From IMG/VR virus record IMGVR_UViG_2700989044_000001, positions 11,683 through 75,682 of that record: a stretch of 64,000 bases of DNA; one strand, written 5' to 3'. The notes beneath the pieces are model-generated. The model saw only the letters and a list, made by a program, of their open reading frames with translations. It was not told the origin of the DNA and ran no database searches. The position numbers and the translations under genes are program-made. This stretch comes from a virus. Its lineage: Duplodnaviria > Heunggongvirae > Uroviricota > Caudoviricetes. Positions 4,015 through 62,007 of this stretch are shown here, in pieces (positions within the stretch are counted from its first letter, which is position 1; every line of letters starts with the position of its first letter).

Positions 4015-4389
4015 ATGAATGATAATAAAAATTTAGCAATTATTTGTGATATACGAAATAGGACTCCAATTGGAGTAATATGTTCTTGTCCAGTTACAGG
4101 CGATCTAGCTTTCTCAACAGAGAATAAAATGTTAGAAGAAACATTAGAAATAATTCTTAGCAGTAAATCATTTCTTTATTCAAAAGAAAAAGTAAATGAA
4201 CAATCAATGATAAATAGAGAAGAAATCAATCCCAATGATCATTATTACTTGATGGCAATTGATTTCTCTCTGCCATTTCCTTGGAGAATACTAGGAATAA
4301 CTTCTGTAGAAGGGGATATAGAACAAATAGTAGGAAATGCCATTGAAATGCTAAAAGAAGGAGGAAACAATTTTGAAACGATTGATTAA
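4015..4389 (+). CDS. hypothetical protein
   Basis: ORF in co-directional array, RBS-like GGTG upstream. Confidence 0.4.
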   Translation: MNDNKNLAIICDIRNRTPIGVICSCPVTGDLAFSTENKMLEETLEIILSSKSFLYSKEKVNEQSMINREEINPNDHYYLMAIDFSLPFPWRILGITSVEGDIEQIVGNAIEMLKEGGNNFETID

Positions 4390-4687
4390 AAAGTCTAACC
4401 ATGTTGAACCATCTATTCATAATGAGGTGGAAGACAAGATTATACATCCAAACACAAATATAAATGAGAATCAAAACCCATCATTTTTATTAACAAGACA
4501 ACTATTTGCAGATACTGCTTTCACGCCTACTGCAACTATTAGTTATCAATTTGCTAGAAAAATTGAAAATGGTGAGTTTAGTCACCTTGGTTCTATTGAA
4601 GAAGCAAGGGGTAATTGGTCAGAATGGTTGAACGCTTTAGATAGTTTTTTAGAAGAATCAGGTCACAAAGGTTTAAAAAAAAACTAA
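4373..4687 (+). CDS. hypothetical protein with MKRLIKK leader
   Basis: TTG start preceded by AAGGAGGAAACAA; N-terminal MKRLIKKS. Confidence 0.45.
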   Translation: MKRLIKKSNHVEPSIHNEVEDKIIHPNTNINENQNPSFLLTRQLFADTAFTPTATISYQFARKIENGEFSHLGSIEEARGNWSEWLNALDSFLEESGHKGLKKN

Positions 4688-16535: not shown

Positions 16536-17051
16536 ATGAAGAGATTAATTAAGAAAGCTTCGGTCTATGATGTTCCTGAGGAATTTTTATTTTATTGGTG
16601 TTCAAGTCCAAGTGATATAAAATATAATTATCCAGAATCTATAGAAAAGATAGCTAATGAAAATACAGATTGTATTTTTAGTGGTGATGCTTATAGATAT
16701 ATTGAGTTACCTAATTTCGAGTATCAAGATAAAGAAATAGATCAATTACTTAAAGAAGCATGGGATGAAGTACAAACAGTCGAGAAGTATAGTTCATTCG
16801 CTTCATCAAAAAGAGGCGTAGAGCATTTTATTACAACTGATTATAGAAGTTTTGGAATTATTATTGAAGCGAATGTTAGCGGGATTGATATAAAGAAACT
16901 AACAAATAAGTATCGCGATACTGTAGATGAACAAGTTTTCGAATACGCTGATACAGAAGATGAAATAGTGACTTTGGATGTTGTTGATTCTTGGGATATA
17001 GCTGCAATAGTTATTGAAGAAGAGGTAGAGTGGATTCAGAGTGATATTTAA
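16536..17051 (+). CDS. hypothetical acidic protein with MKRLIKK leader
   Basis: RBS AAAAGGAGAG; N-terminal MKRLIKKAS. Confidence 0.5.
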   Translation: MKRLIKKASVYDVPEEFLFYWCSSPSDIKYNYPESIEKIANENTDCIFSGDAYRYIELPNFEYQDKEIDQLLKEAWDEVQTVEKYSSFASSKRGVEHFITTDYRSFGIIIEANVSGIDIKKLTNKYRDTVDEQVFEYADTEDEIVTLDVVDSWDIAAIVIEEEVEWIQSDI

Positions 17052-21659: not shown

Positions 21660-22073
21660 ATGATGAATTTCATAAAGAAATCACTTGGATTATTAAATGC
21701 CGCCGAGGGATTTATTCATATTTTTATTGCATGTATCGGGTTTTGGGGAATTTTCGCTACAGGCATTTATGATTGGAGAATTATTTCAGCGCCAGCTATT
21801 AATTTAGTTCTTGGAGTGTTTTCAATTTTTACAGGATACATTTTATTATACGATAAGGTTGGCATACTGAAAAAGATATTAGCAATTTTAAACACTCTTG
21901 AGGGTATTATCCATATAGTTGTAGCTCTTATTGGTTATTGGGGAATTTTTGCATATATGGTATTTGATTGGAGAATTTGGGCTACGCCAACAGAGCACTT
22001 ATTTTTTGGGTTATTCTCAATTTTAACGGGATATATACTTGGTAAAAATCACCATCACCATCATCACCATTAA
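21660..22073 (+). CDS. membrane protein with internal tandem duplication and C-terminal His7
   Basis: Two ~60-aa repeats each with two TM helices (…GFWGIFATGIYDWRI… / …GYWGIFAYMVFDWRI…); ends KNHHHHHHH. Confidence 0.5.
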   Translation: MMNFIKKSLGLLNAAEGFIHIFIACIGFWGIFATGIYDWRIISAPAINLVLGVFSIFTGYILLYDKVGILKKILAILNTLEGIIHIVVALIGYWGIFAYMVFDWRIWATPTEHLFFGLFSILTGYILGKNHHHHHHH

Positions 22074-23386: not shown

Positions 23387-23395
23387 ATTATTTTA

Positions 23396-23430
23396 AAAGG
23401 GACAATAAAAATTGTCTCTTTTTTTATTTT
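23396..23430 (+). terminator. rho-independent terminator
   Basis: GGGACAAT-AAAA-ATTGTCTC followed by T7. Confidence 0.7.
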
Positions 23431-23498
23431 TTGTAATAAATCTCGTTAATTAAGTCTATTCTTTTATATAGTGGAACCAAATAGGAGGATTTATAGAT

Positions 23499-24632
23499 AT
23501 GAAACGTTTAGTAAAAGCTGAACAACAGAGTAGTACTATCAAATTAATGCATGGTACATCTAGTAAATTAGCTGAATCTATTTTTGAAAACGGTCTTTTA
23601 CCGCAAGGATTGACTGATACAAAAATGTTTAATTATAGTGATTATGGTAGAGAAGGCGACGCAAGACATATTGAATGCGTATATTTAACTGATGATTTAG
23701 AAAATGCTGTTAGATACGCTAACAATGCTGTTAAACATAAGGGAGGATTTCCTTTAATTTTCGAAGTGGAAGTTGAGAAATCTGCTTTAACATGGGATGA
23801 CGATGCTTTTTATAAAAACTATGGCGATTTTGATTTTGGAGAAAAAGATGAAGAGTCTGGTACTTGGATCAAAAAACCATCTAAGCAATTGTGGGAACAA
23901 TCATTAACTATCAATAATCAATGTGCTCATTATGGCAAAATTGAAAGAGACAGTTTTAAAAGAATTAACTTAAATTCAAAATGGATCAATATTTATAATT
24001 TTATTAGAATTTACAATAGCTACGATAAGATGAATTTAAAACCAGAGTTGTTAAAAGAAAAAGAAGAATATTACTACAAAGAATTTAGTTTAGAAATAGA
24101 CGATAATTTAAAATTAATGGCTTCGATTATTGACAGAAATATATTTTTGTACAATTTAGAAATCGTAAAATCGCTTGATAAATTCGAAAAACAAGCTTTT
24201 TCATTGATCTTAATGGAATTTTTAAAGGACAATTTGAAAGAATTTGGAGCTAAAATTTTCTATACTTCAGATTTTAAATCATTAAATTTCAATCCAAAAA
24301 TTTCTAGTTTAAACTACGCTTTTGGTAGATTTGAAATAAATAGTTTAGAAAGCATACTTGATCACGTACAATTACGAATTCAACGTATGGATGAAGACTC
24401 TATAATGATGTCGAAGATAGTTAATTGCGAAGCTTCTGAAGAAGAATTTGACTTAATTTATGAGTATAGCATTGATTTCTCTGGAGATTTAATCGAATTC
24501 TGCGAAAAATCTTTACAAATGGATAATGATTCTATTCTTGATGTTTTAAAAAGAGTTAAACATCAGTATAACGATGCGTATAACGAGTTAGATGCTGAAA
24601 TCGAATACTTATTGTATAGAGATCATAAATGA
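23499..24632 (+). CDS. ADP-ribosyltransferase-fold protein (PARP/Tpt1-like NAD-binding lobe) with MKRLVK leader and ~270-aa C-terminal extension
   Basis: LMHGTSSKLAESIFENGLLPQGL...CVYLTDDLENAVRYA...FEVEVE resembles the HGT-GLLP-VHLSxDxExA pattern of KptA/Tpt1 and the H-Y-E lobes of PARPs; RBS AATAGGAGGA. Confidence 0.5.
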   Translation: MKRLVKAEQQSSTIKLMHGTSSKLAESIFENGLLPQGLTDTKMFNYSDYGREGDARHIECVYLTDDLENAVRYANNAVKHKGGFPLIFEVEVEKSALTWDDDAFYKNYGDFDFGEKDEESGTWIKKPSKQLWEQSLTINNQCAHYGKIERDSFKRINLNSKWINIYNFIRIYNSYDKMNLKPELLKEKEEYYYKEFSLEIDDNLKLMASIIDRNIFLYNLEIVKSLDKFEKQAFSLILMEFLKDNLKEFGAKIFYTSDFKSLNFNPKISSLNYAFGRFEINSLESILDHVQLRIQRMDEDSIMMSKIVNCEASEEEFDLIYEYSIDFSGDLIEFCEKSLQMDNDSILDVLKRVKHQYNDAYNELDAEIEYLLYRDHK

Positions 24633-25253
24633 TTTGAAAATCTTAAATGGTTGATTTCTCCCAGTTTCTTTATTAGTTTGACATGCTATTAGATTATTAT
24701 TTAAGTAAGCTAATAAAATGCTCTATGAAATAAATGGTGAGAAGGATAAATTATTGAAAACCTCTAGAAAGTCATCTAGAAATTTAGATTTTTAAAATGA
24801 AATAGTTTGGAAATGATTTGATTAATGAAATTGAAATGTTAACTCTGTATTCACTAATTTCAGTCCATGATTCACAGAGTGCAGCTATAAATATAATTAA
24901 TATTATTTATATTAGATTAATAAAAATAAGATATATAAAAATAAAAAGATATAAGAGATATGTTAGTGCTGCGCACACATTCTCTTCTTTTTATTTATTT
25001 TTAAAACATACTGATTTTTAATGAGTTATCAGTACTGAAAACCGTATCTAGAGATTATTTATTAGTGACATAATTTTAATTAGATACGCTTTTCTTTATA
25101 TTTTTATGTTTATTAATGTATCATTAAAAAAACAACCTCAGATTGAAGATTTATGTATTTAAAAAGTAGTCAAGAAGATTGTTGTTTATCTACTTTTTTG
25201 TTAATGAATTTACGTATTCCCATTAAAATATAAAATGGGAGGTTGGTTAAGTG

Positions 25254-26141
25254 ATGAATTCTAATTTTTTCGATGAAGTCCATGATTTTCAAAGGTTTGT
25301 AAGACAAAATGTAAAATTGTTGGGTAACTATTTAATTATTTCAGAACAATTATATATGAGAAATGATGAAACTGGAATACTTGATATGTTAGCCGTTGAT
25401 AATGATTCTAAAGTATTAACTATTATTGAAATTAAAAATGATATCACAACTGATAAAAATGTTTGGCAACCCATTCGTTATTACGATCTCGCTAAAAGAG
25501 GTGAAGATGATCTTAGAGAACTTCTTGTAAAGGCTTCCTCTAAATTTGATTATGATATACAGGAAATTGATTTAACTCCAAAATTATTGTTAGTGGTGCC
25601 TAAATGTAATTCTCAGCTGTTAAGAACTTTATCGTATTTTGGAGACATAGATTCAGAAGTTATTGAATTAACAAGAGATGTTAAAAAATATGGTGTTGAA
25701 ATAAAGAAAGAGAGTTATAAGCCGAGATCAATTTTTCACAAAGATGATCTAGTAAATGTACAAAAGAAGATTTCCCAAGAATGGAGTTTTGATGAATATT
25801 TAAAACACGGAATCAATAGTGATAAAGTTAATTTAGCAAAGAGAATATCTACTCAAATTCAATATCTTTTCAATGAGAAAGACATTAAATTTGATATATT
25901 CTTTAGTGAAACGAAAATTACGATAACTAAAGATAAAAAAGTTTGGTTACATCTTTTTATTAAGAATAGGATACTTGATAATAAATTGACTATATCTTTT
26001 AAAACTCATAAAGATTGTGTTATTAATAAAAATGATTTTATATATAATTCATCAATAGAATCATTCACTATTCAGAAGAGCAGTATAAAGTTAACATTAA
26101 TAGAAGCTTTATCACTAAATGTATTTGAACGATATTTATGA
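25254..26141 (+). CDS. PD-(D/E)xK nuclease family protein (NucS/DUF91-like)
   Basis: GILDMLAVDNDSKVLTIIEIKND matches the G-IDLLA-D...IE-K nuclease core; RBS GGGAGGTTGG. Confidence 0.5.
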   Translation: MNSNFFDEVHDFQRFVRQNVKLLGNYLIISEQLYMRNDETGILDMLAVDNDSKVLTIIEIKNDITTDKNVWQPIRYYDLAKRGEDDLRELLVKASSKFDYDIQEIDLTPKLLLVVPKCNSQLLRTLSYFGDIDSEVIELTRDVKKYGVEIKKESYKPRSIFHKDDLVNVQKKISQEWSFDEYLKHGINSDKVNLAKRISTQIQYLFNEKDIKFDIFFSETKITITKDKKVWLHLFIKNRILDNKLTISFKTHKDCVINKNDFIYNSSIESFTIQKSSIKLTLIEALSLNVFERYL

Positions 26142-54471: not shown

Positions 54472-55302
54472 ATGTCTAGAGATCAATTAGCTAAAATAGC
54501 AAAAGAAACAATTGAAATCGTAAAAAAAGGCAGTTATGTAAATAAAAAGAAAAAGACAATATCAGTCAAAGATGATGTGGATTTTTCTGTAAAAAATACT
54601 AAGTTGTATTCACCAGAAGATGGAGATGAGTTACTTAAAAATTTAACTCAAAATGATATTTTACATCAAACAAAATTTGAATGTAAAAATGAAACAACTT
54701 TATTTGCTGCAAAGAGACTATTAGATGAAGGTTTTAATAATGTAGTTGCTTTAAACTTTGCTTCAGCAAGAAATCCAGGTGGAGGTTTCTTAAAAGGGTC
54801 TTCAGCACAGGAAGAAAGTTTAGCAAGGTCTTCTGCATTGTATGATAGTATTTCTCAAATGAGAGAAATGTATGATTACAATTCTAAAAATAAGAGTGGA
54901 TTATACTCTGACTATATGATTTACTCGCCTTCAGTACCTGTATTTAGAGATAACACAGGGGAGTTACTAGAAAAAAGTTTTAATTGCTCCTTTGTTACTT
55001 CTCCGGCTGTTAATTTAAAAGTTTTACAACAGGAAGAAAAACAAAAGGCTAGAGTTGTCATGGAGCAACGAATCAGAAAGATACTTACTGTGGCACTAGA
55101 AAATAATTGTGATGCTATTGTGCTTGGAGCGTTTGGTTGTGGTGTATTTGGAAATAGACCAGTAGATGTAGCTCAGATTTTTAGACAAGTTTTGAATAGT
55201 ACACAGTTTAAGGGCAAATTTAAAAAAGTATCATTTGCAGTTTACGACAAGACTCCTAATAAACAAATTTTTAATGTTTTTAAAAATACCTTTGGGAGAT
55301 AA
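54472..55302 (+). CDS. microbial-type poly(ADP-ribose) glycohydrolase (DUF2263/PARG)
   Basis: LNFASARNPGGGFLKGSSAQEES contains the PARG signature GGG-X7-QEE; ATG after AAGAAAGAGGTATTAAA. Confidence 0.6.
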   Translation: MSRDQLAKIAKETIEIVKKGSYVNKKKKTISVKDDVDFSVKNTKLYSPEDGDELLKNLTQNDILHQTKFECKNETTLFAAKRLLDEGFNNVVALNFASARNPGGGFLKGSSAQEESLARSSALYDSISQMREMYDYNSKNKSGLYSDYMIYSPSVPVFRDNTGELLEKSFNCSFVTSPAVNLKVLQQEEKQKARVVMEQRIRKILTVALENNCDAIVLGAFGCGVFGNRPVDVAQIFRQVLNSTQFKGKFKKVSFAVYDKTPNKQIFNVFKNTFGR

Positions 55303-55593: not shown

Positions 55594-55998
55594 ATGTATA
55601 AGGCTACTGGTAAAATAGTATTTAATCCCGTAACAAGAGAAGGAGATATGCCAGATAAGTTATGGTGGGTGATGGTAGAATGCCCTCATGATATTATCGA
55701 ATATTATAGGTATTGGGTAACTAAAAACAAAAACTTTAAAATAAGTTACCCACTATTTGGATCACATATATCTATCATTAGGAACGAAGAGCCACCTGAT
55801 GAATTTAAACACTTGTGGGGTAAGAGAAATGGTATGGAAGTTGAGTTTACCTATACTCCAGACTTTGAAACAAACGGAAACTACTGGTGGTTAAAAGTGG
55901 ATTGTCCACAATTAGATGATATTAGAGAAGAGTTGGGTTTACCTAGAAAGCCTTTTTTTGATTATCATTTAAGTATAGGTAAACTCATAAGGGTATAA
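55594..55998 (+). CDS. hypothetical protein
   Basis: ATG after AAAGGGGATTTGGGG. Confidence 0.4.
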   Translation: MYKATGKIVFNPVTREGDMPDKLWWVMVECPHDIIEYYRYWVTKNKNFKISYPLFGSHISIIRNEEPPDEFKHLWGKRNGMEVEFTYTPDFETNGNYWWLKVDCPQLDDIREELGLPRKPFFDYHLSIGKLIRV

Positions 55999-58667: not shown

Positions 58668-59147
58668 ATGATAACAGCTTTTAGAAGTGATTTAACTAAA
58701 TTGCAAAACGTAGATTATATAGTGAACGCTGCGAATGCAAAAGGTCCCATGGATTCTGGAATAGCTGGGGCAATAAGAATAAATGGTGGAACTGAAATAC
58801 AAGATGCTGCAATGTTAATATGTTCTAAATTAAATTATCAACCTGGAGATATTTATGTTACACATGCTGGTAGATTATCATTTAAGAAAATAATTCACCT
58901 TGTAACAATGGAAAACCCAGGTGGAGTAACTTCATATGATATTGTTAGAAAATGCCTTCAGAATTTAATTTTATACTGTAAAGTTAATAATATTAAGAAA
59001 ATCGCTTTACCAGCTTTAGGTACAGGTGTAGGTGGTTTAGATATTGATAAAATAGCAGGAATTTTTAAAGAAATATTGGGTAGTGTAGAAGAAATAGAGT
59101 TTTTAGTTGTAGATATTGATCCAATGTTTATTTACAATTTTAAATGA
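58668..59147 (+). CDS. Macro domain protein (ADP-ribose binding/hydrolase)
   Basis: YIVNAANAKGPMDSGIAGAI matches the macro-domain VNAAN...G..GAI signature; RBS AAAGGCGG. Confidence 0.55.
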   Translation: MITAFRSDLTKLQNVDYIVNAANAKGPMDSGIAGAIRINGGTEIQDAAMLICSKLNYQPGDIYVTHAGRLSFKKIIHLVTMENPGGVTSYDIVRKCLQNLILYCKVNNIKKIALPALGTGVGGLDIDKIAGIFKEILGSVEEIEFLVVDIDPMFIYNFK

Positions 59148-59246: not shown

Positions 59247-60167
59247 TTGAAAAGATTAAAGAGACAATCAAAAGTATTTAGACAATCAAGATTGAAAAAG
59301 AAATCTTGGGATGCAGTGAGTTTAAAACACTATACTAGTACCCAACATTTTATCGAGATAATGAACGAAGGCCAAATAACTCCTGGTGGTTACAATGGGA
59401 ATATCTCAGGTGGTGGACATGTTAAGTATTTATCGATGAGTGATGGCAGCAATACTACAAAAAAAATGTCACCATCAGAAATAGATAGATTATTCTCTAG
59501 TGATTTATGGGAAATTGATAAAGATTTATTGAACTATGTGAATGAAACGAAAGATACTGATGAATGGTACTCAAAACAAATTAATGTAAATATTATTCAA
59601 CCTAGTCATGATCAAAATGGTGTTTATTTAACTAATAGGTCTGATGAAAATGATTACGGAAAAGAAGCTGTTAATAATGGTTTAAGTGACGATTATCCTA
59701 ACTTTGAAATAACTTTAGAATTTAATGTTCAAACTGATGCATTAGGTCCTGACTTAGATGATGGTAAAATAGATAAAGAGAGCGAAACTCCACTTTGGAG
59801 ACAAACTATTGATTCTATAGGTCAGTGTGTACATTATGGTCCTATTTCTATTGACTCAATTAGCCAAGTGATAATAAAGGATTATGGTCAAATAAATGGA
59901 TATGAAATGAGGTTTTCAGATAGAGATAATTTTTTAAGTTGGGCTAGTGAATTTATAAGTTTTGAACAAGGTTTAAGTGCAGCAGATGCATATTCGCAAA
60001 TTCAAAAAATGTATGAAGAATTTGACAATTATTATGAAGAAGAAGACTTTGATGATGAAAATATTAATATCAACGACGATGATGATTTTGATGATGATGA
60101 TATTGATTTTGACATAGATGATTTCGAATTCCCTGAAGATGAATTAAATGATGATGATTTAAAGTAG
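59247..60167 (+). CDS. hypothetical protein with MKRLKRQ leader and poly-acidic C-terminus
   Basis: TTG at 59247 after AGAGGGTG (ORF-track 59217 start is an extension); C-terminal DDDDFDDDDIDFDIDDFEF. Confidence 0.45.
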   Translation: MKRLKRQSKVFRQSRLKKKSWDAVSLKHYTSTQHFIEIMNEGQITPGGYNGNISGGGHVKYLSMSDGSNTTKKMSPSEIDRLFSSDLWEIDKDLLNYVNETKDTDEWYSKQINVNIIQPSHDQNGVYLTNRSDENDYGKEAVNNGLSDDYPNFEITLEFNVQTDALGPDLDDGKIDKESETPLWRQTIDSIGQCVHYGPISIDSISQVIIKDYGQINGYEMRFSDRDNFLSWASEFISFEQGLSAADAYSQIQKMYEEFDNYYEEEDFDDENININDDDDFDDDDIDFDIDDFEFPEDELNDDDLK

Positions 60168-61647: not shown

Positions 61648-62007
61648 ATGAAACGTCTTATTAAAAAGTCAGAAAAGACTTATGAAACTAAGAATGATAA
61701 TAATGAAGTTGAACAGCGTGAAGAAGTAGATAATGAAGTTCATGAAGAAGTACAAGAAACAAATCATGAAGAAGTACATCCTGCAGATATGGAGAGAGAA
61801 GACCCTTATCTTGGAAGATATGTAGAAATCACAAATCGTAGATCAAAGTATTATGGTTATCACGCAAGAGTAGATGATAAATTTTATACTGATAGATATA
61901 AAATTTACTTAGAACCAAAAAGAAGTGATGACGATGGTGGAAAAGGGTATATTATCAATTTTGTAGGTGTAAATGTTGCTTCTAACTGGTTTACTGTTGT
62001 TGAGTAA
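61648..62007 (+). CDS. hypothetical acidic protein with MKRLIKK leader
   Basis: RBS GGGGAGGGGAAATTCAA; N-terminal MKRLIKKSEK. Confidence 0.5.
   Translation: MKRLIKKSEKTYETKNDNNEVEQREEVDNEVHEEVQETNHEEVHPADMEREDPYLGRYVEITNRRSKYYGYHARVDDKFYTDRYKIYLEPKRSDDDGGKGYIINFVGVNVASNWFTVVE

Follow-up and report, generated by a model that had tools for sequence, protein, structure and literature searches.

The activity of the rifampin ADP-ribosyltransferase (ART) Arr requires H19, Y49 and D84 (PMC13246000, citing Baysarowich 2008); in DarT1, a guanine-specific ART of single-stranded DNA, F72 stacks on nicotinamide, R35 contacts a phosphate, and E152, N104, R52 and D54 are essential (PMC11543638). ARTs of jumbo phages are predicted to hijack host machinery (PMC7824862, PMC9503650), and Bacillus phage G encodes "at least 10 ARTs" (Iyer et al. 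2022, PMC9503650). Here we examine gp53 of phage G, whose gene lies in a window of 64,000 nucleotides that forms part of the phage genome (NC_023719; a record coordinate is the window coordinate plus 11,682, and window coordinates are used below unless marked otherwise). The coding sequence, taken from the open reading frame (ORF) list and its translation, occupies 23499..24632 on the + strand, starts with ATG and specifies 377 residues plus a stop codon; its product matches Bacillus phage G gp53 (YP_009015364) at 100% identity, and the only public annotation of that protein is "gp53". The 2025 paper on phage G (PMC12484599) mentions in its main text neither ADP-ribosylation nor gp53 or its paralogues. 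Our analysis of its sequence and predicted structure indicates that gp53 almost certainly has the ART fold and belongs on the H-Y-[EDQ] (PARP/Tpt1/DarT) side of the superfamily. We also lean, with less assurance, towards a fuller interpretation in which gp53 is a two-domain effector, an H-Y-D mono-ART with a target-selecting C-terminal domain and a tag-like leader, that would modify a host macromolecule.

The fold is assigned because three independent lines support it: a Pfam match, a profile built from remote relatives and a structure search. These bear out the claim of a first-pass annotation, made from the sequence alone, that 23499-24632 encodes an ART-fold (PARP/Tpt1-like) protein. Pfam PARP (PF00644) matches residues 8-98 (E = 2.5e-4; 21.1 bits with the full protein, 23.5 bits with the N-terminal domain), ending before the catalytic Glu region of the model, and the same weak match recurs in 20 of the 21 full-length homologues, which come from metagenomic phage contigs at 39-79% identity; for three of them a PF00644 label had already been precomputed. 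Searching exhaustively by profile yielded 274 remote relatives of the ART unit, which share a segment equivalent to gp53 residues ~1-155 and are mostly stand-alone proteins of 130-250 residues starting M(K)LYHGTSS...GLxPR. Conservation was counted over a set of 112 remote relatives of about 25-35% identity, among which Pfam recognizes PARP in 30 (best E 2.4e-8), Tpt1 in 4 and ART-PolyVal (PF18760) in 2. A Vibrio phage relative bears the annotation of a PARP catalytic domain protein. A profile and structure search for ART similarity had been set beforehand as the test of the assignment: the profile built from the 112 relatives (A2), run against all PDB sequences, retrieves DarT1 (8BAQ; E = 1e-9) and, at ~1e-5, several chains of Tpt1, and Foldseek comparison with the BFVD viral models matches phage proteins of the DarT, PARP-catalytic, Arr and Tpt1 types. 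The AlphaFold2 model of gp53 has a mean predicted local distance difference test score (pLDDT) of 86 and a predicted template modelling score of 0.80, and the split beta-sheet core by which structure comparison detects the ART superfamily is present. PADLOC and NCBIfam searches with gp53 returned nothing meaningful. The phage-rich ART family that includes gp53 has no Pfam model of its own, and it has evidently been counted already by comparative surveys.

The ART domain (residues ~10-177; 23526..24029, + strand), delimited by the Pfam PARP match, the A2 search of the PDB and the unit common to the 274 remote relatives, begins with strand 1 (TIKLMHGTS), a helix, a loop at residues 37-58, strand 2 (CVYLT), helix 2 with Y73, and strand 3 (PLIFEVEVE); these are followed by LTW-DDD, an insert at ~111-141, and then three strands and a helix. 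The motifs of YHGTS, GLLP and LIFEVEVEK type quoted in the first-pass annotation are present in gp53 as LMHGTSS (16-22), GLLP (32-35) and LIFEVEVEK (86-94), with VYLTDDLENAVRYA at 61-74. The strand-1 NAD-binding motif H18-G19-T20 (23550..23558, + strand) aligns with Tpt1 YHGT and DarT1 HFT, and is conserved as H in 111, G in 101 and T in 110 of the 112 relatives. Y62 of the V-Y-L-T strand (23682..23684, + strand), the "Y" of H-Y-x, is kept in 107/112 and aligns with Y49 of Arr-ms; the second aromatic residue, Y73 (23715..23717, + strand), located on the helix that follows strand 2, is either Tyr or Phe in 85/112 and aligns with DarT1 F72. In the proposed mechanism, this domain would be a minimal ART dependent on nicotinamide adenine dinucleotide (NAD+), of the H-Y-[EDQ] (diphtheria-toxin/PARP-like) clade, in which strand 1, through H18-G19-T20, and strand 2, through Y62, would hold NAD+ while Y73 would stack on the nicotinamide.

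Judging from conservation, the third catalytic residue is most probably D100. It belongs to W99-D100-D101-D102 (23793..23804, + strand), the candidate catalytic acid motif, for which the family consensus is L-x-P-D-[ED]-D: D100 is present in 110 of the 112 relatives, position 101 is E or D in 90/112 and position 102 is D or N in 97/112, and all 21 orthologues keep the motif unchanged. The H-Y-E arrangement proposed in the first-pass annotation has to be amended on this point, because the FEVEVE Glu residues (positions 89, 91 and 93) are acidic in only 47-65% of the 112; positions 149-151 are variable, and no acid is conserved across the 112 on the later strands, where PARP E988 and DarT1 E152 are sited. 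Near-invariant positions over the set are H18, G19, T20, G32, P35, Y62, D100 and S135, of which H18, G19, T20, G32, Y62 and D100 are each at least 90% conserved. D100 would thus replace the catalytic Glu, as D84 does in Arr; the spacing from H to Y to D in gp53, 44 and 38 residues, parallels that of Arr-ms. A family hidden Markov model (HMM) set against the Arr-ms and ARR-2 PDB sequences places Arr Y49 at Y62 and Arr E76 at E89 with a score of only 6 bits. The site may therefore be Arr-like, H-Y-D, an arrangement consistent with a mono-transferase, and gp53 would work like a minimal H-Y-D ART that transfers a single ADP-ribose rather than building polymers.

That gp53 is catalytically active seems likely from this conservation: retention of H in 111/112, T in 110/112, Y in 107/112 and D in 110/112 among sequences of ~25-35% identity is what one would expect if the enzyme were active. 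We consider it very improbable that the domain is a catalytically dead ART fold with a role in binding or structure, such as that of a sensor of NAD+ or ADP-ribose; the missing canonical Glu and the poor modelling of residues 37-52 would fit such a role, and the strict conservation of the NAD-contacting residues across relatives this divergent speaks against it.

A poly(ADP-ribose) polymerase is likewise very improbable as an identity for gp53. In that case gp53 would build poly(ADP-ribose) chains that the phage PARG, gp114, removes, and the suggestion draws on PARP being the sole Pfam family match, on some relatives passing the threshold, on the annotation of the Vibrio phage relative and on the PARG gene lying 30 kb away. 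The likeness to the PARP catalytic domain consists of H-G-[ST], Y and a second Y eleven residues later, the last being also the distance between Y896 and Y907 of PARP1 and equal to that between Y62 and Y73. The match covers the first half of the domain only and stops short of the catalytic Glu region; chain elongation needs that Glu, no Glu is conserved in the family, and gp53 has neither the helical regulatory domain nor the WGR domain of PARPs. PARPs with H-Y and a residue other than E are mono-transferases, and gp53 is probably a mono-transferase at most.

Less credible still is a Tpt1/KptA-type RNA 2'-phosphotransferase acting in RNA repair. The family does share the HGT strand with Tpt1, and Tpt1 chains are among its profile matches; the N-terminal winged-helix RNA-binding lobe is absent, as the first-pass annotation had noted, with only 17 residues preceding HGT, the R-H-R-R tetrad is lacking, and Tyr replaces the second His of H-H-h. 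Pfam search of gp53 gives no match to PF01885 (Tpt1/KptA), such PF01885 similarity as the family has is confined to ~25-40 residues, and phage G already possesses a complete KptA (gp280) that scores only E = 1.8e-4 against the family profile. The claim that gp53 belongs to a clade other than that of T4 Alt, ModA and ModB also held: the T4 enzymes are of the R-S-E clade, marked by Arg on strand 1, S-T-S on strand 2 and a [QE]-x-E motif, whereas gp53 is H-Y-type, with His on strand 1 and V-Y-L-T on strand 2, and no match to PF03496 was found in the Pfam search of gp53. Only the fold is common to both, together with the circumstance that in each case one large myovirus encodes several paralogous ARTs presumed to be aimed at host machinery. 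As Pfam PARP, Tpt1 and DarT are defined, gp53 lies outside all three, lacking at least one defining feature of each.

Among solved structures the best profile match is DarT1, with Tpt1 next, and the likeness to DarT1 includes H-x-T on strand 1, the G-L-x-P/S helix end, H-P-D before strand 2 (H57-P58 in gp53, GHPD in DarT1) and an aromatic residue on helix 2. DarT1 numbering was checked against the published residues (PMC11543638) and mapped through the gp53 alignment. DarT1 R35 falls on position 36, where R is common in the family and gp53 itself has Q36; DarT1 R52 lies opposite G53 and D54 opposite A55, neither being conserved as R or D; and the alignment ends near DarT1 residue 101, before N104 and E152. 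This likeness raises the possibility of a nucleic-acid ART, modifying DNA or RNA bases in the manner of DarT or phosphate ends in the manner of PARP/TRPT1, which would block host replication or translation or mark phage DNA; the fusion of one orthologue (P0013) to a ParB-like DGNHR domain, and the presence of RNase HII, Tpt1 and CCA-adding enzyme among orthologue neighbours, point in the same direction. We nevertheless rate it as rather unlikely: E152, N104 and the R52/D54 pair, that is, the catalytic, base-reading and paired residues of DarT1, lack conserved counterparts in the gp53 family; gp53 has no Pfam DarT match and no adjacent antitoxin-like eraser gene of macro-domain or NADAR type; and both domains are acidic (isoelectric point 5.8 for the ART domain and 4.6 for the C-terminal domain, the latter with a net charge of -17), which is atypical of nucleic-acid binders. 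DarT adjoins DarG, and a comparable arrangement in phage G is that of the paralogue gp123 with a Macro gene.

Because its domains are acidic, a protein is favoured over a nucleic acid as the target of the proposed effector. The target would be selected, most probably, by the acidic C-terminal domain and by the loop at residues 37-58 (GLTDTKMFNYSDYGREGDARHI; 23607..23672, + strand), which is identified by its conservation in the orthologues and is specific to this subfamily. T39, Y46, Y49, R51, G53 and H57 of the loop are invariant in 21/21 orthologues, though residues 37-52 have pLDDT below 50; in the alignment the loop occupies the position of the NAD-binding/substrate loop of DarT1 (PMC11543638), and from this correspondence it may be a substrate or NAD contact loop.

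The C-terminal domain (residues 178-377; 24030..24629, + strand) consists, in the predicted model, of a four-strand meander, an alpha/beta unit and a five-helix bundle, and has a pLDDT of 90 when modelled alone. At ~200 residues it is shorter than the ~270-residue C-terminal extension first described, since the ART domain with its insert extends as far as residue ~177. Only gp53 orthologues have this domain at their C-terminus. Trigger factor was not accepted as its identity, the profile search against the PDB being marginal (E = 0.04); other fold candidates were set aside for want of an HxHxDH motif or a CoA-binding motif, or because only ~80 residues aligned, and viperin matches in a single-sequence PDB search were at chance level (E > 0.09, ~34 residues, no radical-SAM motif). 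This domain and the shared leader, described below, are the genuinely undescribed elements of gp53. The metagenomic orthologue P0013 (580 residues) bears an extra C-terminal extension of ~200 residues with a ParB/sulfiredoxin-like "DDGNHR" motif, which links the gp53 family to ParB-like domains; phage G itself has a leader-bearing ParB_N protein, gp284.

The resemblance of the site to that of Arr also invites a different proposal, that gp53 is a small-molecule ART or an NADase that modifies or destroys a compound such as a nucleotide of immune signalling or an antibiotic-like molecule. Its minimal architecture and H-Y-D arrangement match those of Arr, the residue types of H19/Y49/D84 recurring in the same order and at similar spacing (with an alignment of 6 bits and D84 paired with D100 by register), and the phage has SLOG, NUDIX and deoxyribosyltransferase-like proteins and its own NAD+ synthesis. 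At that score the sequence similarity to Arr falls short of significance, gp53 has no Pfam Arr match, and there is no sign of rifamycin binding. The Arr domain is ~140 residues long, whereas gp53 has in addition a conserved loop of 22 residues ahead of strand 2, an insert of 30 residues beyond the acid motif, the leader and the 200-residue C-terminal domain; the conserved extra domain and surface loop suggest macromolecular recognition, and the ten paralogues, whose peripheries diverge, point to many different targets. For these reasons a small-molecule substrate appears improbable.

The effector interpretation that we prefer holds that gp53 would covalently modify a host macromolecule, more likely a protein than a nucleic acid, during takeover or counter-defence, within a phage ADP-ribose economy that supplies NAD+ and erasers; the host-takeover role is suggested by analogy. 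Several observations weigh against it. The PARP match does not reach the PF00644 gathering threshold (26.7 bits) and covers model positions 44-128 of 199 only. No Glu C-terminal to Y62 is conserved across the 112 relatives, and the canonical strand-5 position has none; Arr D84 is brought to D100 by register only (I81 opposite L97), hmmalign having stopped short of D84. The closest characterized relatives by sequence, DarT1, Tpt1 and Arr, modify DNA, RNA or a small molecule and not proteins. The C-terminal domain has no PDB or Pfam sequence match and offers no functional clue. Finally, the neighbours of gp53 in phage G are gp52 and gp54 (NucS_C-like), and no eraser is adjacent.

The first nine residues of gp53 form the leader, which is disordered in the model (pLDDT below 50) and begins MKRLVKAE (23499..23522, + strand), following the consensus M-[KR]-R-L-x-[KR]-[KR]-[AS]; R3 and L4 are nearly invariant in gp53 homologues. 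That the MKRLVK leader is shared, as originally claimed, is confirmed: it stands at 21 annotated gene starts of phage G, against 0.06 expected from composition, and on eight of ten ART paralogues (Fisher p = 8.6e-12). Four ORFs of the window begin with it (4373-4687; 16536-17051, gp38; 23499-24632, gp53; 61648-62007, gp126), and a fifth, gp123 (59247-60167), does so from its annotated TTG start. Elsewhere in phage G it is carried by a SLOG protein (gp345), a deoxyribosyltransferase-like protein annotated as NUDIX (gp334), the ParB_N protein gp284, a GNAT protein (gp508), a Zn-ribbon protein (gp172) and several proteins of unknown function; gp38 and another carrier, gp675, are two paralogues of phrog_25946. 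The leader is kept in orthologues on related metagenomic contigs and in ~20 of 150 remote ART relatives.

Leader codons vary synonymously, and the DNA upstream is unrelated apart from the ribosome-binding site; selection therefore acts on the leader peptide, and a nucleotide-level repeat or translational element is ruled out. A Sec or other secretion signal is ruled out likewise, since the sequence shows no hydrophobic h-region after the leader. A literature search for the leader peptide strings found nothing. The basic heptapeptide MKRLVKA may be a separable sorting or regulatory tag common to a set of conflict-type enzymes of phage G. T4 Alt is injected along with the DNA and bears at its N-terminus a short peptide that targets it to the capsid; because of this, and because the set of domains that carry the leader resembles that of head-packaged polyvalent proteins, our favoured guess, made by analogy, is that the leader would direct packaging into the capsid for co-injection with DNA; an alternative guess is that it acts as a degron for timed destruction by the phage ClpXP (gp257/258). 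We advance only tentatively, as something we are inclined to doubt, the broader proposal that the heptapeptide is an undescribed N-terminal sorting signal of G-like megaphages that marks a regulon of ~20 stand-alone effector enzymes for ClpXP destruction or for capsid delivery, in the latter case matching in function the T4 peptide on Alt or the MuF fusion of polyvalent proteins, and that gp53 is an injected first-wave effector whose C-terminal domain picks the host target. In line with an effector role, relatives of the gp53 ART domain sit inside MuF-containing polyvalent, multi-effector proteins (P0053, P0108), also together with Acb1 and Alt-type ART domains, and two of the 112 relatives match PF18760; gp53, unlike the polyvalent proteins, is a stand-alone two-domain protein without MuF and without a PF18760 match of its own.

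For the search with the family profile, the whole phage G genome was assembled from annotated stretches. It contains ten members, gp53, gp123, gp141, gp233, gp251, gp336, gp531, gp532, gp568 and gp610, with E-values from 1e-16 to 1e-52, the KptA gp280 being only marginal; these ten agree with the published count of "at least 10 ARTs" (PMC9503650). The first-pass annotation had portrayed a phage with one writer and two erasers of ADP-ribosylation. The PARG and Macro genes stand; the single writer does not, as phage G has ten paralogous writers, and the writer whose gene is paired with Macro is gp123, not gp53. Also encoded are NUDIX enzymes, a true KptA and an ADP-ribosylglycohydrolase, as well as a gene cluster for NAD+ synthesis. 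The microbial-type PARG gp114 is encoded at 54472..55302 (+ strand; PF10021, E = 3e-53), and the Macro domain protein gp122, an ADP-ribose eraser or reader annotated "Appr-1-p processing domain", at 58668..59147 (+ strand; PF01661, E = 7.4e-25). The paralogous ART gp123 (59247..60167, + strand) lies 100 bp downstream of the Macro gene and is recognized by the A2 profile (E = 2.5e-26), by BLASTP against gp53 (E = 2e-6) and by phrog_13493 (E = 1e-75); translated from its TTG start, the product begins MKRLKRQ, and it retains H, Y and D, with H-Y-T in place of H-G-T. Further features of gp123, which the first-pass annotation did not mention, are a long insert and a C-terminal tail of extreme acidity (DDDDFDDDDIDFDIDDF...). 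Two genes after PARG is gp116 (55594-55998, + strand), annotated as the anti-CBASS nuclease Acb1 (PMC12484599), and in the remote relative P0028 a gp53-type ART domain is fused to an Acb1 domain.

Outside the window, the ART gp233 divergently adjoins the ADP-ribosylglycohydrolase gp234 (record 163172-164823), forming a second writer-eraser pair, and the ART gp336 follows two genes after gp334, which Pfam classes as deoxyribosyltransferase-like and the annotation as a NUDIX hydrolase. The genes gp273-gp283 (record 200123-207372) encode NUDIX, nicotinamidase-like, NAPRT, KptA/Tpt1 (gp280), NadD-like and NAD synthetase proteins; the phage therefore makes its own NAD+ alongside ten ARTs. In three of five orthologue neighbourhoods an ADP-ribosylglycohydrolase, NUDIX or Tpt1 gene lies within ~1 kb upstream of the gp53 orthologue (respectively L002, 7799-8917; L005, 9383-9904; L004, 8981-9547); these neighbours differ between contigs, yet each has to do with ADP-ribose or NAD. 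Further orthologue neighbours encode RNase HII and CCA-adding enzyme. The other two of the five keep the synteny of phage G, with a gp54-like NucS_C protein and PgpA.

In phage G, gp53 is preceded by an AGGAGG Shine-Dalgarno site (23483..23488, + strand), read from the sequence 10 nucleotides 5' of the ATG. Further upstream, in the gap between gp52 and gp53, a consensus scan finds a terminator-like hairpin with a T-run (23395..23432, + strand; hairpin 23395-23422, with a 12-bp stem and a 4-nucleotide loop); it separates gp52 from gp53 and suggests that a new transcription unit begins at gp53. No significant promoter match was found upstream of gp53, the scan of this AT-rich DNA not exceeding the shuffled expectation. 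On the 3' side, the gap between gp53 and gp54 (24633-25250) is unusually long at 618 bp, very AT-rich and without an annotated gene; short inverted and direct repeats are visible by eye, no ORF in it is convincing, and an Rfam scan of the gap gave no match at E <= 1. The downstream neighbour gp54 (25251-26141, + strand) has a weak NucS_C endonuclease-like match (E = 1.3e-3); the order gp54 then PgpA (gp55) is conserved, and gp54 is kept beside gp53 orthologues in contigs L003 and L006. Upstream, gp48 (21660-22073, + strand) is a predicted membrane protein of two similar halves whose C-terminus is a natural stretch of seven histidines (...GKNHHHHHHH).

Since surveys have already reported an abundance of ARTs in jumbo phages, and notably in phage G, the ART call itself is unsurprising; with its candidate catalytic residues H18, Y62, Y73 and D100, it opens an entry known only as "gp53" to direct test. 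No other megaphage has been cultivated, and the ten ART paralogues of phage G, together with PARG, Macro, ADP-ribosylglycohydrolase, NUDIX, KptA and NAD+ synthesis, offer a natural system in which to ask how a virus conducts an entire ADP-ribosylation economy, its many writers differing in specificity. The leader groups the ARTs with other conflict-type enzymes and, if it is a packaging or degradation signal, would provide a handle on the megaphage effector set from sequence alone. Both the set of effectors tagged with the leader and the ADP-ribose system with its ten writers merit experiment.

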